Positions 1 through 19,346 of a stretch of 19,346 nt of DNA are shown piece by piece (within the stretch, counting starts at the first letter, position 1; the number at the start of each line of letters is the position of its first letter). The DNA is from Lepidodermella squamata. Its lineage: Eukaryota; Animalia; Gastrotricha. A program made the position numbers and the translations under genes. The notes under the pieces were generated by a model. The model did no database searches, had not been told where the DNA came from, and saw only the letters and a program-made list of their open reading frames with translations. The stretch is taken from NCBI GenBank assembly GCA_047495785.1, contig JBLDXI010000115.1:1-19346 (forward strand). Reading direction: 5' to 3'.

Positions 1-243
1 ACAAGTCTGGAAAGATCTGCGTATCGATTTTTGAATTCCAAGGCCTTGATAATGGCGCCTCGAGCACCGAAACGTAGGCTGAAATATTGATAATACTACG
101 TTAAACGCAGAGGTGTTTCGACATTTACTCTCTCTTTTTTATTCATTCACACTATAACGGTCAAAACTGGTTTGAAATATTTTATGAGAAATTGAAAACA
201 AAACAAAACAGCTAAATTGAACTTTATGAAAGCCCAAAGTTCG

Positions 244-355
244 ACCTAGCCTTAAACCTAAACTGAACTCAAAATCATAACATTGCCCTAACCCTAACCC
301 TATTACCTAACCCTAACCCTAACCCCAACCCTAATCCTTAATCCCAACTCCTAAT
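244..355 (+). repeat. Degenerate telomere-like (CCCTAA)n / (TTAGGG)n hexamer tract, interstitial
   Basis: Perfect CCCTAA units in 286-334 (ccctaaccctaaccct...ccctaaccctaaccccaaccctaa), decaying on both sides while roughly keeping a 6-bp period (acctag, ccttaa, acctaa, atccca, tcctaa). Confidence 0.8.
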
Positions 356-867
356 CATCGTTTGCTGAGCAACTTATTTAATATTCTTAGTTTTTAAAAT
401 TCATCAAAATTATCGAAAAAAACAGTTCTGTTTTCTCCTCAGTATTTCCAGTGTAAAAAACTTCTCATTCATAAAAAAGCCGAGTAAGGAGTGAGTCTGG
501 GTACATAGTGGCGCCTGGGAAGTGTGATAAACAGCTTTAATCAATGAAAGCCGGGGTAGCGCATTTCCTTGGGCGAAAAGTTGAATAAAATAGAGTTACA
601 TTTTTTGTGAGAATTTTGTCTTTCATCTCAATTAATTCGCATTTTTTTTATAAATAAACAAATAACGTGATTTCTACGGTTGCCGAGCTTTTAGATCTTG
701 CTTTCGAGATAAAGCTATTGCCGGATGTCTCTAAATCGCGATTTGTTACGGAATGAAACGAACGAAAATAGCGAAAATTGTCTTCCTACGTTTTTTGTGG
801 CTTAATTGTCACAAAAATCCCAAAAATGGCCAAACCGGACATTTGAACATTTGAAGGTCTAAAATCG

Positions 868-1033
868 ACCGGATTACACATTAGTCCGGTTTAGCAGTCA
901 GGATTAATATGTAAAGTCCGCACTTTCGGCACGTGCCGCCCGAATTCGCGCAGATTACGGTTTAGACCGGTCCGGATTATATAAACTTAGACTATATTAA
1001 GTTGTCGGATTAATTGAGCCGTTTGTCCGATTA
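868..1033 (+). repeat. Cluster of short degenerate GTCCGGATTA-like motifs
   Basis: GGATTA at 871, 901, 974 and 1007, plus variants gtccggttta (884), cagatta (951), cggtttag (958) and gtccgatta (1025). Confidence 0.55.
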
Positions 1034-1666
1034 AAGAAGACAATTGTCTTAAAAAAAGTCAAATCTAATTTTGTACTGGAATCCTGATCAAAACAAAGAC
1101 AATTCCAGCGAAAATATGAACAATTATTTTGAAAAGTATTCTCAAGGTCGAAGTTATATGATTGGGCGCCTGATTGATAACTAAAGAAATTATTGGCTTT
1201 AATTCGGAATTAAAACAGGAAGATAAGAATTAATGGCCTAGAAGTCCAAAGGTTGTTTCGCGGGAATCCGTGGTTGTTATGAAATTTCTTTATCTTAACC
1301 TAAATATTTTGCATGGGCGTGTCATAGCCTCTCGCAATGTTTGCACTTTTCCCATTCTTATCTTTAGCTGCACTTTGAATGGTTTCCTGTTTGTGGCTAT
1401 TCGCCAGAGGAAGCCGCCAGTGGGGGACATGAAATCGATCTAAACAGGAACCAATTAGGCCTTACACTTTTTGAATTCTTTGACATTTCATCACCCACGT
1501 GATGTCGCGATGTTTTACTGAACGAAATTGAAAGGGATGTAAGTGATCGAAATTTAATTTTCGCAAAAGTAGACAGTTCATCCTCGTTGCCGACAGGCAA
1601 ACAAGCTCACCGGACAATAAAAAAATCAAAATCAAGTTCATAGAAATGTCATAGGATGCTGTGATC

Positions 1667-3030
1667 CTAATGAAGATCCACCCAGACTGTAGCTCGTTTG
1701 ACGAGCTCTTCAGCTCTAGCATCGTCCTTTGCGATGCCGAAGACAGATTCGACCTTGCAGGCCTTGTTGAAGTATTTGCCGGACCATTTTTCAATCCCAG
1801 GTTCACAGGCGCAGAATACTGGGACATCTGCTCCACCCAGCTCGAGATCCTTGCCGAGCAATTTGAGCCAAACTTTGATGAAATTCATCTTGTGGTGTCG
1901 GACAATGTTGGTCCTAACTTCGCCGGGATGAAGGCTGAAAACTGAGATTCCACTTTGATCGCCCAGTTGCTTATTCAAGTAGCGTGTGTACAGAATGATG
2001 GCCAATTTCGATTGGGCATAAGCTCGCCAGTAAGAGAAATTACCGTTCTTGCGGCGGAACTTTTCCTGATTCACATCGTCTACGTCAAAGCCCTTAGGAT
2101 AGGCCGCTTGATACGCTTGCGATGTGACATTGACAATCCTGGCCGTGCCGGATTTCTTCATCAAATCAAGAAGCAGATTCGTGAGAAGAAACGGCCCGAG
2201 GAAATTGGTCGCGAAGGTCATTTCGAAGCCATCCTCGCTCAGTTCATAGCAATTATCGGGCTGCAACAGGGCTGCATTGTTGACCAGAACATCCAGCTTT
2301 GCTTCAGAGGCTATGATCTCCTCCGCAAAGGACCGGACACTCTTCAAAGAGCTGAGGTCCAACTTTCGGATAGAGATGTCGCATTTATCACCCACTGCGT
2401 TTCGGATATCTGGAAATAAAAAATTTCGCGTTAATTTCATAGTCTTTGTCTTGAAAACGTGCGTGTTCAAATGTCAAAGGTCAAATTACGGAACCCTTGT
2501 CGGTTTTTAGACAAAAAGCAAAGTGAGCTTATAAGCTATCGTTTGGGCACAGGGAACGGGCGATAGAAGCAACCATGGATTTGTTGCGTGCCAGCAAAGT
2601 TTTGTGACATGGGAACCTTTCGTAAGCAAGCAAGTGACAAAGACACTATGAGCTTTCCCAATAGTGTGCGAAGTAACGGGAGGAATGGAGGTATCGTACC
2701 CTTCAGTTCACAAAGCCAATGTGGAAAATTCCAAAAGACCGAAGGGACCCTTTGCATAGTCATAAAATAACCCGTAGTTCGAGAAACCTACTTCTACCAT
2801 AAATACCGATACCATTTCCTGAATTTGACATTTGACCTTCCCTTATGATGCCACCCTCACATACCTTTCAAAGCTTCTTCAGCTCGTTCCATCGATCGGC
2901 ATGCCATGATGATACGTGCCGCTCCTTTCCGCGCCAGCTGAATGACCGTGAATTTGCCGATGCCGCAGTTAGCGCCTGTGACAATGCACGTCTTTCCAAC
3001 AATGGTCCACTCTGAGCCGCTTGAAGCCAT
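1667..3030 (-). CDS. Short-chain dehydrogenase/reductase, retinol dehydrogenase 11-14/WWOX-like, 302 aa; exons 3030-2865 and 2409-1667
   Basis: Exon 1 (not in the ORF track) reads [55 protein letters not shown], with the TGxxxGIG Rossmann motif. A phase-1 intron GTATGT...TTCCAG (2864-2410, 455 nt) joins it in frame to DIRN. Exon 2 has [33 protein letters not shown], catalytic YAQSK (YxxxK) and HPGEVRT. Confidence 0.93.
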
Positions 3031-3678
3031 CTTTCCTCGAATGATACTACCCGGTAGCGGCCACCATGCTTATATGCGATCATCAATTAAGCTCAACTTG
3101 TCATGTCACATTATTGTGTGCCCTGGGTCGCCTGTTGTGATCTTCGCCTTGTCAGCGCAAAAAGTCCGAGTTATCTATAACAGTTCACTTGTCCTTGTTG
3201 GAAGGTAAGCGACCGGACGCAAAGTCTGAACAAAATATCCGGTTTTTTTCGAACAAATTGCCCATCGATGCGGAACCGAAGTGACATGTCCCAGCAAGGC
3301 GCTGTCGTAAGCCCTCGCATGTCGCATGACGAAAAGACAACCCCGTTTCAGATCCCATGCTGCGCTTTGAAGTGACTCCTGCCCGACTTATGTCAAGTGC
3401 TCAGCGCTAATTTTCGCAGCCGTGGCACTTGCGTCCGTTTGTGTCGAACTCAAGGCTAATATTGAGATCATTTCCTGTAAATGTGACACATGTCACTGTA
3501 ATGGCAAGGGTTGGCTACTAGCGCACAAATCATTGGACTAGCCGTCTTCGATTTACGAGCAATTTCCTGGGATAAAGCTAATTGGACGACACAATATCAG
3601 TAAAAAGTAAGCAATAAGTAAGAAGAAAATAATTGAGAGTAAACAAACCGAAAACTTTTGGGGTTTTGAGCAGTCGAA

Positions 3679-4918
3679 ATGACAGAAATTTCAGAAATAT
3701 GCATGCCCACCTCTGTTTCCTTTGGAACAGGTTTTCCAGGCAAAGCATTACTTTATCCAGAGGTTAAGGAACTAAAGGAGAGGACATTGAAAGCGTGCCC
3801 TGAAATGCTTGAAAAGAGCTTGCCTATGAACACATGGCTACAGAGCGATTTTACTTCGCCGCTCTACATCAGCTTCAAGTTCCTACTACTTCGATTCGTA
3901 GAAATCAACGACGTCGAGCAGAGAATGTCTGTTTACGCTCGGATCGCATTGTCATGGAACATTCCGTGTTCGATAAATTGCTCTGAAATTTTGCCTCCAC
4001 GATTACAGCAGAGTTGCAACTCGTCTAAAATCGAAAGTATCAATTTTTTCCTACCGAAATCAGAGGCATACTTCCCCTATATCAGCCACTACAATGCGTT
4101 TCAAGATAACAGGCCGTTGGATTCGTATGTTTAGCTAAATAAGGCCGTTCAATTGATTCTAGAAACTATACAGGCTCTCAAGTGACATACAAGTACTTCC
4201 TTTCGCGCAGCCTGAGCCTCGAGCTATGGGCTTAGCTGCTGGGCGTATGGATACGGCTTGTCGCTATCTAACGTTCAAAAAGTTTCCATTTGACACGCAA
4301 ACTTGCGAGTTGATTTTCCAATCAGATCAGAGGACGGATTTTGTCGTTTTCGAGCAAGTCTCCTTCACGATACCAGACGGCATGGCAGCTCTTCTCGACA
4401 GCGATATCTGGCAGTTGGCCGCCCCATTGAACGCATCTTTAGAGACGGTTCAAATGACGTATTTGACGAGCCAAGTCACGTTCAAAATAACACTTAAACG
4501 AAAATCTTCTATTTACTTTGCGTCAATTTTCATGCCTTTGGCTAGTTTGTTCCTTATCCAAGCAGTCACCTTCGTCCTACCACCTAATGCTATCGATCGA
4601 CCTATGTTTTCTGTAACGGTCGTTTTAGCGTTTTCTGTCATTCTTTCAATCGTTTTAGAGAGCATCCCGCAAACAGCTGAGATCGCCTACCTAATTCTAC
4701 TTGTATGCTGCAACTTTTGCTACGGAGTAGTCACTTCGATCTATTCAGTCGTAATGTGTAATTATGACGATCGCGTTGATGCAACGAATAAGAAATGCTC
4801 TCTCACGAGAAAGTTCATTGTTAAATCGCCACGATTTTACGACTTTATAATTGGCGGCAGTTTAACTATTCTCGTTATGCTTGTTGATTTTACTCTACTG
4901 GCTTTAATGCTCAGATGA
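3679..4918 (+). CDS. Divergent Cys-loop pLGIC subunit 1 (nAChR/5-HT3-like, predicted cation-selective), about 396 aa; exons 3679-4124 and 4174-4918
   Basis: A phase-2 intron GTATGT...TACAG (4125-4173, 49 nt) joins the two ORFs (RPLDS-LSSDIQV). Contains EINDVEQRM (beta1-beta2), Cys-loop CRYLTFKKFPFDTQTC, pre-M1 ITLKRK and four hydrophobic helices; M2 is DRPMFSVTVVLAFSV. The start codon is uncertain because the N-terminus has no clear signal peptide. Confidence 0.88.
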
Positions 4919-5033
4919 GTTATTTGCTGAGAATCTTATCAAATATTGAATTTCGGCAAATAATAATGATAAGCAAACTTGAGATGTTTCATTTGATTTT
5001 CTAACCACTTCGAATCTCCAATTTATACCCAAC

Positions 5034-6278
5034 ATGAAGATTGTCTTTTCAAGTAAACTCATTTTGTTGGCTTTTCCAGTCTTAATTCACGGGATAACTG
5101 ACCCTGAGATAAAGGAAATCGAGGATAATACTGTGAGGATTTGCCCCGAAGTCACACTGAAGAGTCTACCAGCGCATGTCTGGGTGAAAAGTGGCTTCAA
5201 AACACCACTTTATATCGGCATAAGGTTCCAGCTTTACCGTTTGATTGAAATCAACGATGTCGAGGAGCGAATGTCAGTCTACGCTCGGATAAATCTGTCC
5301 TGGAAATTGCCATGCAACATCAGCTGCTTAGACATTCTCCCGAAGAATATAGCCGCACTTGTGAATGGAAACTGTAGCGTGCCTAAAGTTGATCTGATCA
5401 ATTTCTTTGTACCACGATCGGAGACCTACTTCCCACTCATCAGCCATTACAACGCTTTCCAAATAAGCCGGCCATTTGACCAGTAAGTGACTTTCGATCT
5501 ATTTGACCATGTTCAGGACGAATTTCTAATTAGATTAGCTGCTGATGTCCAAATCCAACCTCTGTCGAAACCGCAACCACAAGCCTTTGCTATAGCGACA
5601 GGTCGAATCGATTCTGCATGCCGATATCTAAGGTTCCAAAAATTCCCGTTCGACGTTCAAACCTGCGAGATCATTCTCCAGTCAGAACAACGACCGGAAT
5701 TTGTGGATTTCCAACAAATTTCCTTCTTTATCCCCGATAAGATAGACGCCCTCCTAGATACCGATATTTGGGAATTAGCGGGCCCGTTGAACTATACAAT
5801 AGACAAGATATCACAGTCGTTTTCAGCTGTAATAGTTCAAGTCGCGTTTCGTATAACAGTCAAGCGGAAATCTTGGTGCTACGCAGCGTCTATCTTCATG
5901 CCGCTAGCTGGATTATTCATAATGCAAGCCGGGACTTTCCTACTACCACCCGCCACCATCGAGAGGCCTACTTTTGCTATTACAGTTGTCCTCGCATTCT
6001 CAGTTCTATTGTCTATGGTTTTCGTCAGCATTCCTCAGACAGCTGAGACGGTTTACCTAATTCTAATGGTTTGCTGGAATTTCTGCTACGGAATAGTCAC
6101 TTCTATCTATACTGTGATCGTCTGTAATATGGATGATTCTCCAGACCAAGGCACTAAGAAGCCAATATTTTTCGGAATCTCGTCAAAAGTCAGGCTTTAC
6201 GACTTGATTATCGGAGTTTTCTCAACAGCTTTAACAGTGATTATCGACATAATTTTATTCGTCCTGATGACGAATTAA
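5034..6278 (+). CDS. Divergent Cys-loop pLGIC subunit 2, 397 aa; exons 5034-5482 and 5534-6278
   Basis: Signal peptide MKIVFSSKLILLAFPVLIHG. Phase-2 intron GTAAGT...ATTAG (5483-5533, 51 nt) at the same position as in the paralogs. Cys-loop CRYLRFQKFPFDVQTC, M2 ERPTFAITVVLAFSV, four TM helices, AATAAA at 6293. Confidence 0.92.
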
Positions 6279-6343
6279 AAGGATAGCAGCTGAATAAATA
6301 TCAAGGACTCAAAGTGTGGTTACTAACGTTTCTACTTGTTACT

Positions 6344-7574
6344 ATGTATTTCTTTATCCTAATTTTCATTTCGGCTAGTTACTTAGCTGTAGAGAGTATA
6401 CCAGAGCTCTTAGAAATTCAAGAAAATGTGATGAAAGCGTGCCCTGAGTTGAGGATTCGCCAACTACCTATGAGCATTTGGATGAAGACCGGCTTTAAAA
6501 CCCCAATGCAGCTCAGCGTTCGGCTTTACCTCCACCGTGTCATCAGTCTTGACGATATAACGCAACAGCTGTCTCTTTACGTCAGAACCCGATGGTCCTG
6601 GGAAGTACCTTGCGAAGTGGTATGCGAAACCATTCTGCCTCTGAGCTTGAAAGCTGCCAATATCAGTTGCGGAATGAAAGATCTGGCGCAAATAAATTTC
6701 GCAGTACCGAGAGATGAAACTTTCTTCCCGGCCATTAATCACTACAATGCTTATGAAGTCAGTCGACCCCTAGAACAGTAAGAACTTGGAATTTGCATAT
6801 TTTGGCCTAGATCTAGACATTTTATGATATACACCCAGATTGGTCAAGGAGGTCAAGATTTTTCCATTTGGAACCGCTAAACCAACCGCGATGTTTGTGG
6901 TCTCGGGCCGCATCGACTCAGCTTGTCGCCACATGTCGTATCGGAAATTTCCATTCGACATTCAAACCTGCGACATCCAGCTTCAATCAGATCAACGCAG
7001 CGAAGTTGTCGCATTTGGCGATATTATATTCGCCGTTTCTACTTCCGCAAACGAGCCGCCTCTAACTGAATCAGATATATGGGAACTAGCAATGCCGCTG
7101 AATTACACGCTACAGCTGATTAAACAAGACCAAATCTCGAATTACCAAATCAATTTTCGCGTGGTCCTGCGACGGAAATATGGTTACTTGATGATACCGA
7201 TATTCATGCCCCTTTACGGCCTTCTCCTGCTTCAAATCGGGACGTTTTTCTTCCCAACTAAATCTGTTGATCGGCCAATCTACTCTGCTACGATAGTTTT
7301 AGCCTTTTCGGTAGTTCTCTCTATGGTTTTCAACAGTATCCCGCCAACAGCTGAAACTGTCTATTTGATTCACCTTGTTTGCATTAATTACGGTTACGGA
7401 GTTTTCGTAACAATTTTCACGGCTTTACAACTGGCTTTCAAACGTAAGACGACAGGACCAAGTGATTTCATAGGATGTAGTTTTATTAACAGTTACCGGG
7501 TTGTATCGCTTCTTTCAACGGGCGTAACACTTGCTGCTAACATCACTTTGATACTGCTAATGATTTTCGAATAA
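6344..7574 (+). CDS. Divergent Cys-loop pLGIC subunit 3, 389 aa; exons 6344-6777 and 6839-7574
   Basis: First ATG at 6344 gives the signal peptide MYFFILIFISASYLAVES. Phase-2 intron GTAAGA...CCCAG (6778-6838, 61 nt). Cys-loop CRHMSYRKFPFDIQTC, M2 DRPIYSATIVLAFSV. The stop codon overlaps AATAAA (7570-7575). Confidence 0.92.
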
Positions 7575-7637
7575 AACATGTTGTAGTTATTGCTCCAACT
7601 TACAGTAGTGATAAGTAGTCATAGAGGAATTTTCAGG

Positions 7638-7868
7638 TTATTTATCGTTTTTTCCCCAGATTTTCGGCGAAGGTGCGTAGATGCCAAAGCTTCGATATCC
7701 TGAAGTTTTATCGTCGTTATCGAACAAATCATCGTTTTCAGAGGACGATTCAACCAGGCGGGCGGTGGGCGAATCATCGTTGCCGTACCAATCATCGTCC
7801 ACTGCTTGAACAAAAGCGCAAGCTACGATGGCCACGAATAAAAAGATAGCAAGCAAAAAACGGTTCAT
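7638..7868 (-). CDS. Secreted prepropeptide P1, 76 aa (DDDWY subfamily)
   Basis: Signal peptide MNRFLLAIFLFVAIVACAFVQA, acidic VDDDWYGNDD...DDLFDNDDK, C-terminal R-SFGIYAPSPKIW-GK. Paralogous to P2. The longer ORF from 8012 is judged a spurious upstream extension. Confidence 0.8.
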   Translation of the reverse strand: MNRFLLAIFLFVAIVACAFVQAVDDDWYGNDDSPTARLVESSSENDDLFDNDDKTSGYRSFGIYAPSPKIWGKNDK

Positions 7869-8444
7869 ATTTGCTTTGTATTTGTAGAAAATGCGATGAT
7901 GACAAAAAGCGCGAAGAATAAAATTCTTAGAATAGAAAAGGAAATGTCTCCGGTCTCCGATCCGCGGCTGCTTGAGTGTGATGTCGATTTTTCTTCCTGT
8001 TTTTTTGCTCAACCACTTGTCTCCTCAGCAAATCAGATAGCGAAGTGTTTCCTGAATATCAAGGGAAGGAATCACGCTCGGCCAGACAAGTGGTTGTAGG
8101 AAGGCTATTTGCGTGCACTCAACCGTGTGAAAATAGCCCTGCTCCATTATCACATTACTTGATCTTCAGACTAAGTGCTCCCATTCTCGGACTTGTTCGA
8201 TCTGTTACCATTATCTTTGAAAACGGTCAATTAAGCGAGCAATCAGGTGATTTTGATCTTAGTCTTCGGATGCGCCCCGACATATTACGAATTGAGAAAT
8301 ATATGATTCAGCCAATTAGTCCTTTTATTGATTTGTAACCGATTCGCAACTCGAAACAACGGGAAAACATGATCGAGCTACAACATCAAAGACACGATGT
8401 AGATAGGGCATTTAGATTCCAAAATTAGGTGATGTGGCACGCCT

Positions 8445-8735
8445 TCAAAACATGTTGCGGGAAAAGAACCGTGATGCCTTGCGGAATTGCGGCTCGGCAT
8501 TGAACGTAAAGTCGTCGATGCGATGCGGCCACAGTGACGGCTGGCGACCAACACGCTTGTCATTATTCGACCAAACTGATTCGATCTCGTGCGAGTCGCC
8601 GCCTATTTTCGACACGTGGTCAGCGTTCTGCGCTTCGTCGGCGTAGTCGAATATGTACCAGTCATCGTCTACAGCATTGACGATGTGGGAAGCAGCAAGA
8701 GCTATAAAGACTAAAATAGATAAAACAAGTCTCAT
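8445..8735 (-). CDS. Secreted prepropeptide P2, 96 aa (DDDWY subfamily)
   Basis: Signal peptide MRLVLSILVFIALAASHIVNA, AVDDDWY shared with P1, dibasic KR and RK sites, AATAAA on the minus strand at 8329-8324. Confidence 0.82.
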   Translation of the reverse strand: MRLVLSILVFIALAASHIVNAVDDDWYIFDYADEAQNADHVSKIGGDSHEIESVWSNNDKRVGRQPSLWPHRIDDFTFNAEPQFRKASRFFSRNMF

Positions 8736-9271
8736 CTCGCCAATTCGATCAGAAAAAGTGAAACAAATGTAAGAGAAAAGAGAACAGCATATCAGAGGAT
8801 TAGAAGTCATTAACAGTCGATAAAGCCGCGTGAGAACGAACGTCGCTCTAGGCGCTCATTACAGTCTTGTTTGCATAGCCCTACGGTTTATACCTGAGCT
8901 TCAATGCGACGTGACTAGATTTCTCTGAGACTCACGAATTAGCGATATAATTGAACTCCAATCAAGGCTCGATTCTTGATGTCGGGGAGGGACATAGAAG
9001 TAGTTAAGATAGGAATTGCAGTTGTAAAGCAAGAGTGGATCGGAAAAATCCTGATCGAATGGTTTTTGCTTCCCTTCCCATTGGCTTGCTACTGAAACCG
9101 AGATAAATCTGACAAAGACTCAAAACTTCGGTTGCAGTTCAATTCATGTGATTATTTATTAGCATAACCATGGCTTACAACGTTTACTTGTAAAGCCTCC
9201 TTAAAATCATAGGCATATGTTATCTATCTTTCAAATCAAGTTAAATGATAGCAGCTCTGCTATATCTGTGC

Positions 9272-9508
9272 TCATGTGAAGTATTGCCAAGGGCGTCCTG
9301 AACCCATGTAGCGGAACGGCGTGTTACCATTGCCGTTGCTTTTGGCAAAACTGCCGCGACTGACTATAGCTCGCTTGCCCTGCAATGGCATGGTCCAGCG
9401 TGGCCAGGCTTCACCCTCAAGGTCATCTTCGGCTACAGCCAAGGCCTCTGCAGTGATGAAGAAAACTGCGAGCAAAACAGCGATAGTTGAGAGCAAAAAT
9501 GCGTTCAT
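9272..9508 (-). CDS. Secreted prepropeptide P3, 78 aa, with a GKR cleavage/amidation signal
   Basis: Signal peptide MNAFLLSTIAVLLAVFFITAEALA, acidic EDDLEGE, then AWPRWTMPLQ-GKR. AATAAA at 9160-9155. A polypyrimidine tract plus CAG acceptor lies 6 nt upstream of the ATG. Confidence 0.85.
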   Translation of the reverse strand: MNAFLLSTIAVLLAVFFITAEALAVAEDDLEGEAWPRWTMPLQGKRAIVSRGSFAKSNGNGNTPFRYMGSGRPWQYFT

Positions 9509-9849
9509 CTTTCTCTGGGCAAAGAAAAAACTTTTTGATAGTCCCTTAGACATTGTTTTGTAATTTTGCGTAGGTAACGCAAGAACGCTGCGAGACATTG
9601 TTGAGCCGTCCTGGGGCTAGACTTAAAATCGAAATATGTACTACAGTAATCAATCCACGGACCAGACTTGTGCGTGAACCTTCTCTCGGTAAATCTCTCC
9701 CTAATGAGGCAAACTCTAGAGAATGAGTCATCATCAATTATCGTCAATGAGCTCGATGAAACGTCCGCGGTATTTCCGAATAGTTTATCCTTTATTACGG
9801 ACATAAAGCACAGGGGCACATAGATCACGAAAACATGACGTGTCTCTCT

Positions 9850-10104
9850 TCAGCGGAGCAAACTTCGCCACAGCCCTCTTCGGAACGGCATTGGGTTGTA
9901 AATTGCTCCGAAATGGTTAGCCACCTCTTTTGGCTCCTCCAGTTCAGGTTCTTGATTGTCGATATCGGCTTCAGCGGAATCGTCGTCTGTATCGTAGCGA
10001 TTTCTGCCCTCAATTCTGTAGTTTATGAGTGCAAATCCAAGTACGCGATATGCACAAATACACAAAATAATGCCGAGAGTCAGACAAACTGACAGTTGTG
10101 TCAT
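9850..10104 (-). CDS. Secreted prepropeptide P4, 84 aa (ALxNYR...GLWR subfamily)
   Basis: Hydrophobic N-terminus, acidic middle, C-terminal RR-GLWRSLLR. Three aligned blocks shared with P5. AATAAA at 9796-9791. Confidence 0.85.
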   Translation of the reverse strand: MTQLSVCLTLGIILCICAYRVLGFALINYRIEGRNRYDTDDDSAEADIDNQEPELEEPKEVANHFGAIYNPMPFRRGLWRSLLR

Positions 10105-10422
10105 TTAGACGAAAAAAGAACAGAAATGAAATGAAACTCGGTATTTTTCTAGGCCATATCAGTAATCAGCAGGCGCGTCGTATTTTCATTATGTTTACTT
10201 CTAAGGACTCTGACTGAAAGCTATTTCACGTTGTATCTGGATCAATACATACAAACACATAATAATAAACTCATTTTACTAAGCAAAATCCTTTGTTTGT
10301 AGCAGAAGTACCGCATGCGCTAAAAATAAGGAGTGAAAAGTGAAAATATCAACATCCTCCCTCTCTAAGATGCCTTACAAAATAAATGAATAACTAAATT
10401 AAGATATTGTTTATTTTGAAAT

Positions 10423-10638
10423 CTATAAAATTCTACGCCATAGTCCTTTTCGATGGTAAAATGACCCATGCAGGGTGCTGATGTGGTTTACAACAGATCC
10501 AATAGCTGGCTCCAGGTCACGTTCACTCGACAAATCCAGCCCATATCGGTTGTGATCGTCAACTCGGTAATTCATCAACGCATAGCCGAACACAACATCC
10601 AAAAACATTAAGCTGACCAAAATCGTCATGAACTTCAT
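10423..10638 (-). CDS. Secreted prepropeptide P5, 71 aa (ALxNYR...GLWR subfamily)
   Basis: Signal peptide MKFMTILVSLMFLDVVFG. YALMNYRVDDHNRY, VVNH and RK-GLWRRIL match P4. AATAAA at 10415-10410. Confidence 0.85.
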   Translation of the reverse strand: MKFMTILVSLMFLDVVFGYALMNYRVDDHNRYGLDLSSERDLEPAIGSVVNHISTLHGSFYHRKGLWRRIL

Positions 10639-10749
10639 TCTCGGAAAAACTTGAATAAGGCAAAAGTCCCCAGGGTGTCTAACAGATCACATGTTTATTT
10701 TTACATAGCTAGGAGGTATGAGTTTCAGGTATAGGAAATAATCTACGAT

Positions 10750-11043
10750 CTAATACATCATTCGCCAAATGTGTCGTTGCTTGTAGCCGCGAGCCTTCTC
10801 GTCAAGCCGGCTCATAATGCGGAAGGCCATGCGCGCTAAATCGCGGTCTTCAGACAGGAAAAAGTAGTAGTAGTAGTACTCCTCATCATTCAGCGTACTG
10901 ATGGCTGTGTCATCCTCATCCGAGTCGAACATACCGCGATACACGGGCTGCGTGAACAGGTTGGCATACGCATTGATGAACAGGTTGAAATGTACTAGAA
11001 GCAGTAAAATTGTCCCTAAATTCATCCCGAAAATAATCCCCAT
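10750..11043 (-). CDS. Secreted prepropeptide P6 (97 aa from ATG 11043, or 91 aa from ATG 11025) with a poly-Tyr tract
   Basis: Signal-like MNLGTILLLLVHFNLFINAYA, acidic FDSDEDD...NDEEYYYYYFF, basic C-terminus KARGYKQRHIWRMMY. AATAAA at 10699-10694. Confidence 0.78.
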   Translation of the reverse strand: MGIIFGMNLGTILLLLVHFNLFINAYANLFTQPVYRGMFDSDEDDTAISTLNDEEYYYYYFFLSEDRDLARMAFRIMSRLDEKARGYKQRHIWRMMY

Positions 11044-11142
11044 ATATAAAACACCCGCCACTTTACGCCGCCGCGGTGCAAACGCATCATAATAGCCAGG
11101 AAATTGAGCTGTTGAAATTTTTTTTATTAAAATATAGCTACT

Positions 11143-11442
11143 TCAGAAGGCAAATCTAGCAAGTCTTAGTCGGCTCTTCAGAGTTGGCTGCCAGTGCCTT
11201 GACATTTTCTGCCCATCTGTATCGTAGTACTGCTTATGTGGCACGGCTTGGATGAGTTGAAAGTGATGGCCCTGCTCGTCGGTGATGACATCCTCCATTT
11301 CTTCATCAGCGTATTCATCTTCCGACGAATCTTGATCGCTGAAATCAACACGACTCATCGGCATTAATGGCTTCACAAAGCAGTGAATCGCCACGAAATA
11401 GCTGATCAGGATGAGAATAAGTAGTTGTTTTCGGGCAAGCAT
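11143..11442 (-). CDS. Secreted prepropeptide P7, 99 aa
   Basis: Signal peptide MLARKQLLILILISYFVAIHC, strongly acidic DQDSSEDEYADEEMED, basic C-terminus RHWQPTLKSRLRLARFAF. AATAAA at 11128-11123. Confidence 0.83.
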   Translation of the reverse strand: MLARKQLLILILISYFVAIHCFVKPLMPMSRVDFSDQDSSEDEYADEEMEDVITDEQGHHFQLIQAVPHKQYYDTDGQKMSRHWQPTLKSRLRLARFAF

Positions 11443-11741
11443 TACAATTTAAATTTTTCTGAGTATACTGAGCAAAATCATTTGCATCGCGCAATTTTAA
11501 TCTGGCCACTGGCCGCCGCGAGGGATTGCGTGGTGTTTCAACAGCTTTTTTACGCACGATATCGTCGCACAGGGACCTATAGAGGAGTGGCACCAATTGA
11601 TTGAGTGACCTACTCGCGCGGTAATCACATGATTGCGTGGAGTACAATATTATATTATGACGCTAATAATGAAACCTGCGAAAATCAAGGGCCCGCTAGA
11701 AACTGGAAAATGAAGCTTTATTGATAAAACAGCATCATATT

Positions 11742-11975
11742 TTAATCGTCATTTTTCTCGACTACAGCATTGCTGTGCTTCATTTTATGAAATCGCTGTC
11801 GCCAACCAGACGGCACGAATAATTTTCCGTAATTTTTGGCTGGGTCACTTTTGCTCCTCGAGCTGCTTTGTGAAGCAAACCATCGAGCTTTGGCAGGGTT
11901 CACTAGCTCCTCGTAAGCTGCTGCAAGGCATGAAGACGCCAGAAGAAGCAAAATAACCAAACTTCGATTAAGCAT
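11742..11975 (-). CDS. Secreted prepropeptide P8, 77 aa (mostly basic, no long acidic spacer)
   Basis: Signal peptide MLNRSLVILLLLASSCLAAA, possible NY-GK amidation site, GWRQRF. AATAAA at 11722-11717. Confidence 0.8.
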   Translation of the reverse strand: MLNRSLVILLLLASSCLAAAYEELVNPAKARWFASQSSSRSKSDPAKNYGKLFVPSGWRQRFHKMKHSNAVVEKNDD

Positions 11976-12566
11976 ATTTTTGCGTGATATCTAAAAAATG
12001 TGTGAATGAGAGTAACTCAATGGGCGAACGATAAATTGAATCTGGCAAGTGACTTAATGGGATACCAATAATAGCTGAAGATAATCCTATTTGAGGCCGG
12101 GCTTTGATCGAAATCTGATCGAACTTTTCTGTCACGCGATGAAGATCCGCTAATAGACTCATATGCTGATCCGACGTTTATAGGGCGCCCACTCCATTAG
12201 CGTGGTCAGAAGAATGTCTACTCATCAATTTCACGGTGTCTGCACCCTAAAACGTCGCTGTCATCGAATGAGTACTATCAGCATTCTAATATCCTAATTT
12301 CTTCTGCATGTTGTAACTTGCTAATAGGGTGAAAAAGCACTGGCCAAGCTGAAAGTCATTGATTTCATTGACCGCTGTGAAGCAGGAAACAACCATTATT
12401 GACCTGATGCCAAAGTGCAATGACGCACATGGCCTCGAATGACCAATGCTTAGCTACAGCCACTACCCACTCACAACACACCAAGCAAATAATTTATTTA
12501 TCAATCGAAAAAATAAATTTAGAATTCACACTCATCTCAGCCGAATGAATCACATATCATCTAATC

Positions 12567-12917
12567 TCACAGCCATTGCGAGTAGTATTTCGGGAAATTA
12601 GCCGCGTCTTTTTCGACCTGTTCGTCTGACCGGAGGTTGTTCATAGGCCTGCGTCCGTATGGCCGGTCGTTCTTCCGATCCGAGTTGCCACGATTGCCGC
12701 GATTGTTCATATAGTTACCGAGTAGATAAGTCCCTGGCGCAGCTCTTTTGATCATCATTCGCCACGAGCCAACGCCGTCTTCATCTTCAGCTTCTTCGCT
12801 TGAACCAACGTCGTATTTCAGCTTGTAACTGTCGCGAATGCCCATTGTGTTGAAGCAGTGAGTCAAATTCGCAAATAGGAAGATAGCAGCAAGTATCAAG
12901 ATACAGAAATTTGCCAT
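12567..12917 (-). CDS. Secreted prepropeptide P9, 116 aa, several dibasic sites
   Basis: Signal peptide MANFCILILAAIFLFANLTHC, acidic SSEEAEDED, KR, RK-NDRPY-GRR. AATAAA at 12498-12493. A TTTTAG acceptor lies 10 nt upstream of the ATG. Confidence 0.85.
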   Translation of the reverse strand: MANFCILILAAIFLFANLTHCFNTMGIRDSYKLKYDVGSSEEAEDEDGVGSWRMMIKRAAPGTYLLGNYMNNRGNRGNSDRKNDRPYGRRPMNNLRSDEQVEKDAANFPKYYSQWL

Positions 12918-13384
12918 TTTCGCTCGCCTAAAATTGCACAGAAATCAGGAGCGGTGGGGTAAGATATTTGAAAGTAGAATAAAATGAAGTGCCAATACAA
13001 AAAGAATTCAGGTGGGAGTGGCAAAAAAGTCGGAGCGGGGTGAAATCGTTAGCTTTTCTAACGCGAAGCTAGAAGGGAAATGGCTGCTCAGCCTTCACAT
13101 TGAGGAAATTGCCGATACAAAAGGCACTACGAGTGCTCCGGCGTACCAAGCTTTATAATCATGGAATACGGGAAAAAAACAACACTTTTTCGATTGAATA
13201 CTTAATTCAGAGTCCGCCTGTTATCGCAACACCCTGGAGGTTAAAAACTGCCCCAAATATTAGATCCAGAATAATTTTATTAAATTATCACTCATTCAGA
13301 CAAAAAAATGTTAAACATCCCTTTTCATTTGATACTCCCGCATAATAGCACGCATTAGTGAAGAAATAATGGGTAATTAACGCG

Positions 13385-13902
13385 TCAAGACGTATCATGC
13401 ATATGAATATAGTCTGTAGTCATTTCTTTAGCAGCGAGTGATAAATAATGGTTCCAGTAGTACACGTTGAACATGAAGAAAATTGCTGGGAAGCCAAATC
13501 TTGACACCCATTCGATACGGCTAGGGATAGAATGCGATATCACACAGCTGCATTGAAAATCATTGCCCATGTCGATTTCTTCATCAGAGTCCGAGTCGAG
13601 AGCAAATACGAATCTGATGCTTCTCCTTCGCCCATCATCGTCCGACAATCCACTATCACTGTCCTTGCCACATTGCCGCTTTTTCATTCTCATTTTCAAC
13701 TCTTGGCTCTTTTGCTTTGCCTCTAGTCTGGCTTGACAGGCTTTCAGTCTTTTTTCAATGTATGTTACTAAGGCATATTCGAGGAGCGCGAGGAATACGA
13801 TGCAGAAAGAGATTAGCATGTAAATGTCGAGGGCTTTGAGGTAGGATATGTTAGGAAGGCCTGCTTTGAAACCGCTGCTTGTGAATGTCACCATTGTGAG
13901 CA
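13385..13902 (-). CDS. 3'-terminal exon (mid-M2 to M4) of a GABA-A/glycine/GluCl-type anion-channel subunit; 5' part of the gene absent, cut by the inversion junction
   Basis: (V)LTMVTFTSSGFKAGLPNISYLKALDIYMLISFCIVFLALLEYALVTY matches the anionic pLGIC M2-M3 signature (VLTMTT...LPKVSYxKAxD...F.ALLEYA.V.Y). M4 is SRIEWVSRFGFPAIFFMFNVYYW. Phase-1 acceptor ttttctgtttttAG ends at 13903; AATAAA at 13281-13276. Confidence 0.9.
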
Positions 13903-14794
13903 CTAAAAACAGAAAAATGTATAAAATCGTGGGATTTTCGGTATCATCAAGTAACCATATTTCCGTCGCAGGACCACGCGAAAATTGATTTGGTAATTCG
14001 AGATTTGGTCTTGTTTAATCAGCTGTAGCGTGTAATTCAGCGGCATTGCTAGTTCCCATATATCTGATTCAGTTAGAGGCGGCTCGTTTGCGGAAGTAGA
14101 AACGGCGAATATAATATCGCCAAATGCGACAACTTCGCTGCGTTGATCTGATTGAAGCTGGATGTCGCAGGTTTGAATGTCGAATGGAAATTTCCGATAC
14201 GACATGTGGCGACAAGCTGAGTCGATGCGGCCCGAGACCACAAACATCGCGGTTGGTTTAGCGGTTCCAAATGGAAAAATCTTGACCTCCTTGACCAATC
14301 TGGGTGTATATCATAAAATGTCTAGATCTAGGCCAAAATATGCAAATTCCAAGTTCTTACTGTTCTAGGGGTCGACTGACTTCATAAGCATTGTAGTGAT
14401 TAATGGCCGGGAAGAAAGTTTCATCTCTCGGTACTGCGAAATTTATTTGCGCCAGATCTTTCATTCCGCAACTGATATTGGCAGCTTTCAAGCTCAGAGG
14501 CAGAATGGTTTCGCATACCACTTCGCAAGGTACTTCCCAGGACCATCGGGTTCTGACGTAAAGAGACAGCTGTTGCGTTATATCGTCAAGACTGATGACA
14601 CGGTGGAGGTAAAGCCGAACGCTGAGCTGCATTGGGGTTTTAAAGCCGGTCTTCATCCAAATGCTCATAGGTAGTTGGCGAATCCTCAACTCAGGGCACG
14701 CTTTCATCACATTTTCTTGAATTTCTAAGAGCTCTGGTATACTCTCTACAGCTAAGTAACTAGCCGAAATGAAAATTAGGATAAAGAAATACAT
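13903..14794 (-). pseudogene. Truncated inverted copy of pLGIC subunit 3 (signal peptide + extracellular domain + start of M1, 276 aa); intron 14360-14300
   Basis: Identical to subunit 3 up to RRKYGYLMIP, then reads across the junction as KIPRFYTFFCF* and stops on the TAG of the anion-channel splice acceptor. Confidence 0.85.
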
Positions 14795-14859
14795 AGTAAC
14801 AAGTAGAAACGTTAGTAACCACACTTTGAGTCCTTGATATTTATTCAGCTGCTATCCTT

Positions 14860-16104
14860 TTAATTCGTCATCAGGACGAATAAAATTATGTCGATAATCA
14901 CTGTTAAAGCTGTTGAGAAAACTCCGATAATCAAGTCGTAAAGCCTGACTTTTGACGAGATTCCGAAAAATATTGGCTTCTTAGTGCCTTGGTCTGGAGA
15001 ATCATCCATATTACAGACGATCACAGTATAGATAGAAGTGACTATTCCGTAGCAGAAATTCCAGCAAACCATTAGAATTAGGTAAACCGTCTCAGCTGTC
15101 TGAGGAATGCTGACGAAAACCATAGACAATAGAACTGAGAATGCGAGGACAACTGTAATAGCAAAAGTAGGCCTCTCGATGGTGGCGGGTGGTAGTAGGA
15201 AAGTCCCGGCTTGCATTATGAATAATCCAGCTAGCGGCATGAAGATAGACGCTGCGTAGCACCAAGATTTCCGCTTGACTGTTATACGAAACGCGACTTG
15301 AACTATTACAGCTGAAAACGACTGTGATATCTTGTCTATTGTATAGTTCAACGGGCCCGCTAATTCCCAAATATCGGTATCTAGGAGGGCGTCTATCTTA
15401 TCGGGGATAAAGAAGGAAATTTGTTGGAAATCCACAAATTCCGGTCGTTGTTCTGACTGGAGAATGATCTCGCAGGTTTGAACGTCGAACGGGAATTTTT
15501 GGAACCTTAGATATCGGCATGCAGAATCGATTCGACCTGTCGCTATAGCAAAGGCTTGTGGTTGCGGTTTCGACAGAGGTTGGATTTGGACATCAGCAGC
15601 TAATCTAATTAGAAATTCGTCCTGAACATGGTCAAATAGATCGAAAGTCACTTACTGGTCAAATGGCCGGCTTATTTGGAAAGCGTTGTAATGGCTGATG
15701 AGTGGGAAGTAGGTCTCCGATCGTGGTACAAAGAAATTGATCAGATCAACTTTAGGCACGCTACAGTTTCCATTCACAAGTGCGGCTATATTCTTCGGGA
15801 GAATGTCTAAGCAGCTGATGTTGCATGGCAATTTCCAGGACAGATTTATCCGAGCGTAGACTGACATTCGCTCCTCGACATCGTTGATTTCAATCAAACG
15901 GTAAAGCTGGAACCTTATGCCGATATAAAGTGGTGTTTTGAAGCCACTTTTCACCCAGACATGCGCTGGTAGACTCTTCAGTGTGACTTCGGGGCAAATC
16001 CTCACAGTATTATCCTCGATTTCCTTTATCTCAGGGTCAGTTATCCCGTGAATTAAGACTGGAAAAGCCAACAAAATGAGTTTACTTGAAAAGACAATCT
16101 TCAT
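14860..16104 (-). CDS. Inverted duplicate of pLGIC subunit 2; intron 15655-15605
   Basis: Mirror of 5034-6278 with identical ORF translations. Confidence 0.88.
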
Positions 16105-16219
16105 GTTGGGTATAAATTGGAGATTCGAAGTGGTTAGAAAATCAAATGAAACATCTCAAGTTTGCTTATCATTATTATTTGCCGAAATTCAATATTTGAT
16201 AAGATTCTCAGCAAATAAC

Positions 16220-17459
16220 TCATCTGAGCATTAAAGCCAGTAGAGTAAAATCAACAAGCATAACGAGAATAGTTAAACTGCCGCCAATTATAAAGTCGTA
16301 AAATCGTGGCGATTTAACAATGAACTTTCTCGTGAGAGAGCATTTCTTATTCGTTGCATCAACGCGATCGTCATAATTACACATTACGACTGAATAGATC
16401 GAAGTGACTACTCCGTAGCAAAAGTTGCAGCATACAAGTAGAATTAGGTAGGCGATCTCAGCTGTTTGCGGGATGCTCTCTAAAACGATTGAAAGAATGA
16501 CAGAAAACGCTAAAACGACCGTTACAGAAAACATAGGTCGATCGATAGCATTAGGTGGTAGGACGAAGGTGACTGCTTGGATAAGGAACAAACTAGCCAA
16601 AGGCATGAAAATTGACGCAAAGTAAATAGAAGATTTTCGTTTAAGTGTTATTTTGAACGTGACTTGGCTCGTCAAATACGTCATTTGAACCGTCTCTAAA
16701 GATGCGTTCAATGGGGCGGCCAACTGCCAGATATCGCTGTCGAGAAGAGCTGCCATGCCGTCTGGTATCGTGAAGGAGACTTGCTCGAAAACGACAAAAT
16801 CCGTCCTCTGATCTGATTGGAAAATCAACTCGCAAGTTTGCGTGTCAAATGGAAACTTTTTGAACGTTAGATAGCGACAAGCCGTATCCATACGCCCAGC
16901 AGCTAAGCCCATAGCTCGAGGCTCAGGCTGCGCGAAAGGAAGTACTTGTATGTCACTTGAGAGCCTGTATAGTTTCTAGAATCAATTGAACGGCCTTATT
17001 TAGCTAAACATACGAATCCAACGGCCTGTTATCTTGAAACGCATTGTAGTGGCTGATATAGGGGAAGTATGCCTCTGATTTCGGTAGGAAAAAATTGATA
17101 CTTTCGATTTTAGACGAGTTGCAACTCTGCTGTAATCGTGGAGGCAAAATTTCAGAGCAATTTATCGAACACGGAATGTTCCATGACAATGCGATCCGAG
17201 CGTAAACAGACATTCTCTGCTCGACGTCGTTGATTTCTACGAATCGAAGTAGTAGGAACTTGAAGCTGATGTAGAGCGGCGAAGTAAAATCGCTCTGTAG
17301 CCATGTGTTCATAGGCAAGCTCTTTTCAAGCATTTCAGGGCACGCTTTCAATGTCCTCTCCTTTAGTTCCTTAACCTCTGGATAAAGTAATGCTTTGCCT
17401 GGAAAACCTGTTCCAAAGGAAACAGAGGTGGGCATGCATATTTCTGAAATTTCTGTCAT
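16220..17459 (-). CDS. Inverted duplicate of pLGIC subunit 1; intron 17013-16965
   Basis: Mirror of 3679-4918 with identical ORF translations. Confidence 0.85.
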
Positions 17460-18107
17460 TTCGACTGCTCAAAACCCCAAAAGTTTTCGGTTTGTTTACT
17501 CTCAATTATTTTCTTCTTACTTATTGCTTACTTTTTACTGATATTGTGTCGTCCAATTAGCTTTATCCCAGGAAATTGCTCGTAAATCGAAGACGGCTAG
17601 TCCAATGATTTGTGCGCTAGTAGCCAACCCTTGCCATTACAGTGACATGTGTCACATTTACAGGAAATGATCTCAATATTAGCCTTGAGTTCGACACAAA
17701 CGGACGCAAGTGCCACGGCTGCGAAAATTAGCGCTGAGCACTTGACATAAGTCGGGCAGGAGTCACTTCAAAGCGCAGCATGGGATCTGAAACGGGGTTG
17801 TCTTTTCGTCATGCGACATGCGAGGGCTTACGACAGCGCCTTGCTGGGACATGTCACTTCGGTTCCGCATCGATGGGCAATTTGTTCGAAAAAAACCGGA
17901 TATTTTGTTCAGACTTTGCGTCCGGTCGCTTACCTTCCAACAAGGACAAGTGAACTGTTATAGATAACTCGGACTTTTTGCGCTGACAAGGCGAAGATCA
18001 CAACAGGCGACCCAGGGCACACAATAATGTGACATGACAAGTTGAGCTTAATTGATGATCGCATATAAGCATGGTGGCCGCTACCGGGTAGTATCATTCG
18101 AGGAAAG

Positions 18108-19346
18108 ATGGCTTCAAGCGGCTCAGAGTGGACCATTGTTGGAAAGACGTGCATTGTCACAGGCGCTAACTGCGGCATCGGCAAATTCACGGTCATTCAG
18201 CTGGCGCGGAAAGGAGCGGCACGTATCATCATGGCATGCCGATCGATGGAACGAGCTGAAGAAGCTTTGAAAGGTATGTGAGGGTGGCATCATAAGGGAA
18301 GGTCAAATGTCAAATTCAGGAAATGGTATCGGTATTTATGGTAGAAGTAGGTTTCTCGAACTACGGGTTATTTTATGACTATGCAAAGGGTCCCTTCGGT
18401 CTTTTGGAATTTTCCACATTGGCTTTGTGAACTGAAGGGTACGATACCTCCATTCCTCCCGTTACTTCGCACACTATTGGGAAAGCTCATAGTGTCTTTG
18501 TCACTTGCTTGCTTACGAAAGGTTCCCATGTCACAAAACTTTGCTGGCACGCAACAAATCCATGGTTGCTTCTATCGCCCGTTCCCTGTGCCCAAACGAT
18601 AGCTTATAAGCTCACTTTGCTTTTTGTCTAAAAACCGACAAGGGTTCCGTAATTTGACCTTTGACATTTGAACACGCACGTTTTCAAGACAAAGACTATG
18701 AAATTAACGCGAAATTTTTTATTTCCAGATATCCGAAACGCAGTGGGTGATAAATGCGACATCTCTATCCGAAAGTTGGACCTCAGCTCTTTGAAGAGTG
18801 TCCGGTCCTTTGCGGAGGAGATCATAGCCTCTGAAGCAAAGCTGGATGTTCTGGTCAACAATGCAGCCCTGTTGCAGCCCGATAATTGCTATGAACTGAG
18901 CGAGGATGGCTTCGAAATGACCTTCGCGACCAATTTCCTCGGGCCGTTTCTTCTCACGAATCTGCTTCTTGATTTGATGAAGAAATCCGGCACGGCCAGG
19001 ATTGTCAATGTCACATCGCAAGCGTATCAAGCGGCCTATCCTAAGGGCTTTGACGTAGACGATGTGAATCAGGAAAAGTTCCGCCGCAAGAACGGTAATT
19101 TCTCTTACTGGCGAGCTTATGCCCAATCGAAATTGGCCATCATTCTGTACACACGCTACTTGAATAAGCAACTGGGCGATCAAAGTGGAATCTCAGTTTT
19201 CAGCCTTCATCCCGGCGAAGTTAGGACCAACATTGTCCGACACCACAAGATGAATTTCATCAAAGTTTGGCTCAAATTGCTCGGCAAGGATCTCGAGCTG
19301 GGTGGAGCAGATGTCCCAGTATTCTGCGCCTGTGAACCTGGGATTG
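18108..19346 (+). CDS. Inverted duplicate of the RDH-like SDR gene, 3'-incomplete at the window end; exons 18108-18273 and 18729 onward
   Basis: Mirror of 3030-1792: TGANCGIG exon, GTATGT...TTCCAG intron, NNAA and YAQSK motifs; the frame runs off the window. Confidence 0.88.

Follow-up and report, generated by a model that had tools for sequence, protein, structure and literature searches.

The precursors of the active peptides of frog skin are built from a signal peptide, an acidic piece, a Lys-Arg (KR) site, and the peptide. Convertase cleavage with carboxypeptidase trimming is established prohormone processing, and receptor ligands are usually marked by C-terminally anchored residues with free flanks. 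Tight clusters of heterogeneous small secreted genes, in turn, typically encode seminal or gland products. CCK and gastrin end in GWMDFamide (PMC8921109); the planarian Planarins are an expanded, lineage-specific prohormone family (PMC2953531); and clade-specific, unamidated neuropeptides have mass-spectrometric support (PMC6188537). Here we analyze nine small genes (g1–g9) that lie in tandem on the minus strand, between positions 7638 and 12917 of contig JBLDXI010000115.1 from the gastrotrich Lepidodermella squamata (assembly GCA_047495785.1). The whole stretch of 19,346 nucleotides (nt) is called the window; it has a G+C content of ~43% and belongs to a compact animal genome.

The nine predicted secreted precursors form an old tandem cluster of 5.3 kb. 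A preliminary description had proposed a fast-diversifying family of signaling, pheromone, defense, or toxin peptides; among these options, the sequences lean toward receptor-directed signaling.

A shared tryptophan position

We define the processed end of a precursor as the stop codon, a stop codon reached after trimming of a Lys or Arg (K/R), or a dibasic site. With this definition, Trp occupies position −5 relative to the processed end in seven of the nine precursors (g1, g2, g3, g4, g5, g6, and g9): the end is KR in g2 (WSNND) and g9 (WRMMI), a terminal K/R that would be trimmed in g1 (WGKND-K) and g4 (WRSLL-R), and the bare stop codon in g3 (WQYFT), g5 (WRRIL), and g6 (WRMMY). Each of the other offsets between 1 and 12 residues has Trp in at most one gene. 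When any offset and any residue are allowed and one gene of each paralogous pair (g1/g2 and g4/g5) is dropped, the register is present in five of seven genes (p = 0.0002–0.0016); with K/R fixed and shuffling confined to blocks of 12–30 residues, p = 0.0003–0.0017. Restricting the ends to true C-termini leaves five of nine genes (p = 0.0002), or 3–4 of seven with the pairs collapsed (p = 0.0002–0.04); if every single K/R is accepted as an end, the count is eight of nine (p = 0.002), or six of seven with the pairs collapsed (p = 0.02–0.04). The dipeptide WR occupies this position in g4, g5, g6, and g9 (p = 0.03 for any dipeptide, pairs collapsed), K/R stands 2–3 residues ahead of the Trp in g1 and g3–g7, and in g1, g2, and g9 the context of the Trp unit is neutral or acidic.

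A Trp-centered motif had been listed earlier for every gene. What survives of this is Trp at a fixed position in seven of the nine; as sequence, the listed motifs are not significant across non-paralogs (p = 0.34 and 0.09). For g2 the segment named was SLWPHR; this gene does carry a Trp unit, but the Trp that aligns with the others is in VWSNND-KR. A sequence motif common to all nine genes was considered and rejected. These results suggest that the nine-gene set is linked by Trp position and not by sequence.

A proposed function as free-acid peptide ligands

We give a probability of about 0.5 to the reading that the cluster is a lineage-restricted family of non-amidated peptide hormones or neuropeptides that end in Trp-X4-COOH and are cut by a convertase and a carboxypeptidase. 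We infer these two enzymes because the register is the same at a bare stop codon, at a stop codon after one K/R, and at an internal KR. The products would be free acids because none of the Trp units is followed by Gly (G-dibasic sites occur elsewhere in g3 and g9, one each), and 6–7-mers are possible where K/R lies shortly ahead of the Trp (2–3 residues; g1 and g3–g7).

In the mechanism that we propose, the signal peptide would be cleaved and the acidic propiece then removed. A convertase would cut at KR in g2 and g9; in g1 and g3–g6 the natural C-terminus would be used, with the terminal K/R trimmed in g1 and g4 and no trimming in g3, g5, and g6. Cleavage on the N-terminal side, at the K/R that precedes the Trp in g1 and g3–g7, would release the 6–7-mers, although longer forms are possible. 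A receptor, most likely a G-protein-coupled receptor, would then recognize the Trp by its constant spacing from the free carboxylate, and the variable X4 (GKND, SNND, QYFT, RSLL, RRIL, RMMY, and RMMI) could tune each paralog to its receptor.

The products are likely to be short receptor ligands, neuropeptide- or hormone-like. Among the named neighbors listed for g4 and g9 in a protein language-model Atlas, most are neuropeptide or hormone precursors, with scores of 0.81–0.89 (DH31, PDF, UTS2B, NPF/NPY, NPFF, gastrin/CCK, GnRH, galanin, and PBAN).

Several points weigh against this reading. The best named Atlas neighbor of both g4 and g9 is Frey (C11orf94; 0.88 and 0.91), which is not a neuropeptide, and the Atlas recognition scores are under the trust level of the tool, so the neighbors are leads only. 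Dibasic sites are not enriched (9 observed, 10.5 expected); they occur in five of the nine precursors, with none in g1, g6, g7, or g8, and the Trp unit of g5 contains an internal RR that is itself a possible cut site. Amidation signals (G-K/R) are likewise not enriched (7 compared with 5.1 expected, p = 0.23), and the nine precursors contain no multi-copy peptide repeats. Because the register was noticed ahead of any test of it, the tests permit any offset and any residue; g7 is in register only if a single K counts as an end, and g8 is out of register. The only significant paralogous pairs by alignment are g1/g2 (z = 5.4) and g4/g5 (z = 21.6), and the best triple of 7-mers among non-paralogs (GLWRRIL, HIWRMMY, and GSWRMMI) has a BLOSUM score that does not reach significance (p = 0.34). 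Finally, g2 and g4–g7 end in aromatic-hydrophobic stretches with a charge of +4/+5, and nine genes with bipartite charge in a dense, taxon-restricted cluster reproduce the published pattern of antimicrobial peptides (AMPs) in Hydra (PMC10945409). Tyr in an acidic context, that is, a potential sulfation site, is not enriched (9 compared with 8.8 expected).

The strict position of the Trp with a free X4 sequence could also be explained if Trp-X4-end is a recognition site, either for a protein that processes, modifies (e.g., at Trp), or sorts the precursors or for a target enzyme, the products then being toxins or enzyme inhibitors. Brominated Trp is present in several peptides of marine invertebrates (PMC11767717), but no gene for a modifying enzyme was found in the window; we regard this explanation as improbable.

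The nine precursor genes

All nine open reading frames (ORFs) are intronless, are located on the minus strand, encode 71–116 amino acids (aa), and have their own ATG, stop codon, and AATAAA. The N-terminus contains a hydrophobic core in nine of nine (best 11-residue Kyte-Doolittle mean of 2.4–3.5), followed by a plausible −3/−1 signal cut site, picked by eye, also in all nine; by hydropathy, no transmembrane segment follows the signal. The 600 mature residues contain no Cys and 16 Trp; they are rich in Asp, Arg, and Trp, with 6.0% Gly and 5.7% Tyr. The N-terminal half of the mature part is acidic in eight (g8 is the exception), and the C-terminal half is more basic than the N-terminal half in all nine (p = 0.0014). 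AATAAA is found 8–116 nt after the stop codon in eight genes and at +151 in g1. The hydropathy filter and the composition count therefore bear out the earlier account of nine co-oriented ORFs with signal-like starts and no later Cys, and its acidic spacer followed by a more basic segment in eight, as well as its AATAAA within ~120 nt of the stop codon in eight, also hold. Of the general layout assigned to them (signal, acidic propiece, cleavage at basic sites, and cationic peptide), the signal and the charge distribution stand; dibasic sites are not enriched, and a cationic peptide is not supported as what the nine have in common, since g1, g2, and g9 have their Trp units in a neutral or acidic context.

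The precursors differ in detail (coordinates of Trp units are in nt; all are on the minus strand). The 76-aa precursor of g1 (7638–7868) has a signal peptide at residues 1–22 and a mature part that opens with VDDDWY; its Trp unit is WGKND-K-stop (7644–7658). Its paralog g2 (8445–8735, 96 aa) shares the VDDDWY start and has an internal Trp unit, WSNND-KR (8559–8573), followed by two more predicted peptides, the last of which is cationic and amphipathic. The 78-aa precursor of g3 (9272–9508) contains one amidation-type site (G-KR) and ends in WQYFT-stop (9275–9289). The paralogs g4 (9850–10104, 84 aa) and g5 (10423–10638, 71 aa) end in RR-GL-WRSLL-R-stop (Trp unit 9856–9870) and RK-GL-WRRIL-stop (10426–10440), respectively; an AlphaFold model of g4 has a predicted local distance difference test score (pLDDT) of 62 and a predicted template modeling score (pTM) of 0.29, with a low-confidence C-terminal helix at residues 74–83.

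For g6 (10750–11025, 91 aa; another possible ATG is at 11043), an acidic, Tyr-rich spacer precedes R-HI-WRMMY-stop (10753–10767). The 99-aa precursor of g7 (11143–11442) has a strongly acidic spacer and a cationic tail; its Trp unit is WQPTL followed by a single K (11179–11193). The outlier is g8 (11742–11975, 77 aa), in which the N-terminal half is not acidic and no Trp is located five residues before K/R or the stop codon, GWRQRFHK being off by one residue. In g9 (12567–12917, 116 aa), an acidic spacer precedes GS-WRMMI-KR (12750–12764), and further dibasic sites and one G-RR site are present.

Two intergenic distances are very short: 111 nt (10639–10749) between g6 and the ATG of g5, and 117 nt (11026–11142) between g7 and the ATG of g6. 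Each contains the AATAAA of the upstream gene, and the arrangement could be operon-like or reflect minimal, overlapping promoters. A pyrimidine tract with AG precedes most of the ATGs; the upstream DNA of the nine genes has no common motif apart from AT-rich words. An operon with trans-splicing of g7-g6-g5 is not supported; a contig of g9 in a cDNA-like sequencing run passes the upstream AG unspliced to 12960. At the other end of the cluster (7472–7637), the 3′ untranslated region (UTR) of g1 overlaps the end of a convergent Cys-loop channel gene (the third, see below) by ~100 nt.

Sequence relationships within the cluster are sparse. Protein identity in the g1/g2 and g4/g5 pairs is 35–39%, the residues that g1 and g2 have kept in common (VDDDWY) are acidic, and likeness between paralogs at the DNA level is confined to one 26-nt stretch in g1/g2. 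The duplications are old because DNA likeness between the paralogs is nearly lost.

Presumed transcripts and constraint

The cDNA-like run (run X1) is presumed to be from RNA, and the ends of its contigs include what we take to be cDNA template-switch adapters; a second, DNA-like run (run X2) may be the source of the window itself. Run X1 provides an untemplated poly(A) junction for g9 at 12479: a poly(T) loose end lies before this position, 14 nt beyond the AATAAA of g9 (12493–12498), and the window has no run of T there. Contigs from run X1 cover g1 (7593–7886, no differences), g2 (8322–8729), and g3 (9190–9458), and pieces cover g8 (11765–11954), g9 (12688–12960), and, at low depth, part of g5 (10477–10555). 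Depth is also present over g6 and g7; g4 is nearly uncovered, and g5 and g7 are thin. Contig depth was not used for ranking genes, and the intervals without contigs (8768–9109, 9623–9964, 12017–12500, and the greater part of the three channel genes) are holes in the contigs, not evidence either way. At 7472, 8322, 10678, and 11700, contigs end or have strand-switch joints; these positions follow the AATAAA of g1, g2, g6, and g8 by at most 17 nt and weakly hint at separate 3′ ends for these genes, contig ends being unable to prove transcript ends. On the plus strand, loose ends that resemble poly(A) occur at 10352 and 10789, antisense to the 3′ region of g5 and to g6, and may represent antisense RNA or possibly library chimeras.

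Among the differences listed between run X1 and the window in g2, g8, and g9, 14 of 20 are synonymous (p = 1e−5; expected 0.23). Five of those in g2 are synonymous and two change the signal peptide; in g9, 8 of 10 are synonymous. The six replacements involve conservative changes or small residues, all in the signal or propiece; the Trp units are free of replacements. Calculated for 346 codons from five genes, the ratio of replacement to synonymous polymorphism (pN/pS) is ~0.13 (13 synonymous and 6 replacement differences, none in g1 and g3); these counts are small and include run X1 differences only. Because the variants are mostly synonymous and pN/pS is ~0.13, the genes are constrained and not fast-changing; with DNA likeness between the paralogs almost gone, the ‘fast-diversifying’ character first ascribed to the family gives way to old duplications.

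Could the cluster nonetheless be an artefact, with ORFs that arose by chance, belong to a single gene as exons, or result from mis-assembly? The window does contain a probable fold-back chimera (see below). However, a filter for ORFs with signal peptides, with a threshold chosen after the nine ORFs had been seen, returns nine on the minus strand, none on the plus strand, and none in 1–7600 and 12950–13932; on 1000 Markov shuffles it returns a mean of 0.05 and a maximum of 2. In addition, each ORF has its own ATG, stop codon, and AATAAA, g9 has its poly(A) junction, and the variants have a synonymous bias, so the treatment of the ORFs as separate genes instead of exons of one is upheld. The cluster is also located outside the arms of the repeat, and a contig from run X2 (6066–8689, no differences) joins it to the channel genes. 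The nine ORFs are real, constrained genes, and we consider an artefact extremely improbable.

Defense and gland secretion as alternatives

The charge distribution bears directly on a role in host defense, in which the genes would encode arminin-like precursors with an acidic propiece that masks a C-terminal, cationic, Trp/Arg-rich, amphipathic peptide active against microbes, possibly with dual neuropeptide and antimicrobial functions. The more basic C-terminal half in nine of nine agrees with this, as do the 15-mers with a charge of +4/+5 in g2 and g4–g9 (hydrophobic moments up to 0.88) and the predicted, low-confidence C-terminal helix of g4. Published precedents exist: clustering, taxon restriction, and bipartite charge characterize the Hydra AMPs, for which five paralogs of the antimicrobial neuropeptide Hym357 form one cluster (PMC10945409), and the ‘neuropeptide-like’ nlp-29 cluster of Caenorhabditis elegans was found to encode AMPs (PMC2453101). 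However, lysis of a membrane should not need a fixed distance between Trp and the C-terminal end, the Trp units of g1, g2, and g9 are not cationic, and the residues conserved between g1 and g2 are acidic. Also, the paralogs of Hydra AMPs are near-identical within a species and the nlp-29 genes evolve adaptively (PMC10945409, PMC2453101), whereas the pairs in our cluster are 35–39% identical and constrained; no AMP family is found among the Atlas matches listed. We consider defense a tentative alternative, perhaps one chance in a few, and signaling and defense may both hold for some of the genes.

Alternatively, the genes might encode an exocrine secretion of reproductive or other glands, that is, seminal, pheromone, egg-coat, or adhesive-gland peptides that are passed to mates or to the environment. 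Frey/C11orf94 as the best named Atlas neighbor (0.88 and 0.91) points in this direction, and in planarians the copulatory and adhesive glands express prohormones (PMC2953531). But the Frey matches share just 141–146 of 256 features, compared with 170 that are typical for true family members, and the genes are under purifying selection instead of changing rapidly; this alternative is rather unlikely.

Searches for homologs

The cluster is predicted to work like single-copy prohormone genes and is outside every named family that we tested. In Pfam, eight of the genes match no family at E ≤ 1, and g1 has only a chance Ion_trans row; none of the nine matches an NCBIfam family. A g4/g5 profile retrieves only four chance rows from the PDB (E = 0.36–0.91). 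Word-based protein searches with g9 and with a g1/g2 profile gave two candidates for the former, none at E ≤ 10, and 48 candidates but no homolog for the latter. Metagenome contigs contain no match for g9 or for the exon of the glycine-receptor-like gene described below. Within the scopes of these searches, the statement that the peptides match no named family is sustained. An exact look-up in a collection of 15 billion proteins retrieved none of ten window proteins; because the neighboring dehydrogenase is also absent, this result speaks as much for a host that has not been sampled as for novelty.

In the literature, six exact peptide motifs do not occur in the material searched (subscription papers and bioRxiv supplements were outside its scope), and these searches found no family of Trp-X4-end peptides. 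The parts examined of the supplements of PMC8557429, PMC6188537, PMC2953531, and PMC9525235 contain no matching precursor and at most unrelated matches.

Genomic neighborhood

On its left, the cluster is flanked by a tandem of three divergent genes for Cys-loop (pentameric ligand-gated) channels on the plus strand (3679–7574; copy at 13933–17459 on the minus strand). Each encodes ~390–400 aa in two exons separated by an intron of ~50–60 nt, as judged by the best GT-AG fit, and matches Pfam Neur_chan_LBD/memb with E-values of 5e−6 to 2e−4, below the gathering score. The Cys-loop is intact, loop B is QSDQR or QSEQR and lacks Trp, and no vicinal Cys pair is seen; D/E-R-P precedes M2, which we assume to indicate a cation-type channel, and the M3-M4 loop is very short. 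The three divergent channels are predicted to be orphan receptors without the usual transmitter-binding motifs, possibly chemosensory. The peptides could be imagined as ligands or modulators of these channels, that is, as part of a peptide-gated pentameric channel system with its genes side by side; the adjacency of the genes and the divergence of the channels speak for this idea, which we consider very improbable.

On the right, the cluster is flanked by a glycine-receptor-like gene for a chloride channel, of which the 3′ part (13385–13894, minus strand; GlyR alpha, E = 2e−15) is present, a repeat junction cutting the gene upstream: positions 13933–19346 are an inverted copy of 1792–7205 (5414 nt, two mismatches). 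Run X2 departs from the window with a loose end at 13941, not following the junction at 13933–13941, and because of this departure we attribute the inverted repeat to a probable fold-back chimera in the assembly. The nine peptide genes, located between the two arms, are untouched by the repeat; the run X2 contig mentioned above joins the third channel gene to both g1 and g2.

Farther to the left, a retinol-dehydrogenase-like short-chain dehydrogenase/reductase is encoded at 1667–3030 (minus strand). Its closest protein is P0001 (60% identity), and its named matches, from many phyla, have at most 45% identity; the related, unannotated lineage that P0001 marks, with contigs up to 34 kb, might carry a syntenic cluster. 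A degenerate interstitial CCCTAA (telomere-type) array of ~9 copies is present at 286–354 (286–338 by a narrower delimitation). At 9–49, the 5′ template-switch adapter is attached immediately ahead of position 9 in three contigs of run X1, and at 48/49 two contigs continue with other letters; with an Sm-like ATTTTTGA at ~28–35, this segment may be a transcript start or a spliced-leader exon. It has no Rfam match and no unusual fold, and the high run X1 depth of the bin in which it is located may stem from the telomere-like repeat.

Comparison with known systems

If our reading as free-acid peptide ligands is correct, the cluster represents a peptide family that is invisible to homology search because its members share a position and not a sequence. 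The register would then provide exact predictions of the mature peptides and a search rule (signal, acidic piece, and W-X4-[KR/stop]) for the genomes of under-sampled animals.

The precursors of gastrin/CCK, urotensin II, PDF, and DH31 likewise have a signal, an acidic spacer, and a short Trp peptide at or near the C-terminal end. A parallel in position would be gastrin/CCK: when the Gly that donates the amide is counted, its Trp is also five residues before the basic site, and an acidic run before G-x-W, as in gastrin, recurs in g9. In contrast to gastrin/CCK, the nine genes lack the amide-donor Gly after the Trp unit and Met-Asp-Phe; the GWMDFamide-type core of gastrin, CCK, and sulfakinin (PMC8921109), which goes with a (sulfated) Tyr farther upstream, is absent from all nine, and Pfam Gastrin is not matched. 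The CFWKYC core of urotensin II and somatostatin (PMC3493602) is excluded by the absence of Cys from the 600 mature residues. Single-copy hormone precursors also differ from the locus in that nine genes are found here in 5.3 kb. The signal/propeptide profile of frog skin peptides in Pfam matches none of the nine.

The planarian Planarins and the xenacoelomorph neuropeptides are, like the genes described here, lineage-expanded prohormone paralogs with unamidated forms (PMC2953531, PMC6188537); the xenacoelomorph precursors are multi-copy, whereas the nine are single-copy, and the parts of the Planarin and xenacoelomorph supplements that were examined contain no motif match. The arminins and Hym357 AMPs of Hydra are secreted, taxon-restricted, and clustered, with bipartite charge (PMC10945409), as are our genes. 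However, the paralogs described here are old and divergent, their common feature is the position of Trp, the units of g1, g2, and g9 are acidic or neutral, and the neighboring Cys-loop genes are of bilaterian type; Pfam, NCBIfam, and the PDB gave no sequence match (no direct alignment with arminins was made). The nlp-29 locus of C. elegans, with six adjacent small, secreted, ‘neuropeptide-like’ genes in 12 kb (PMC2453101), resembles the cluster in organization; the nlp-29/CNC AMPs are Gly/Tyr-rich and adaptively evolving (PMC2453101), whereas the nine precursors are Asp/Arg/Trp-rich and constrained. Nine old, constrained, prohormone-like genes in a dense cluster are unusual for neuropeptides and more like the clusters of defense and gland genes, so either outcome would inform how the neuropeptide and antimicrobial repertoires of animals originate from tandem, taxon-restricted genes.

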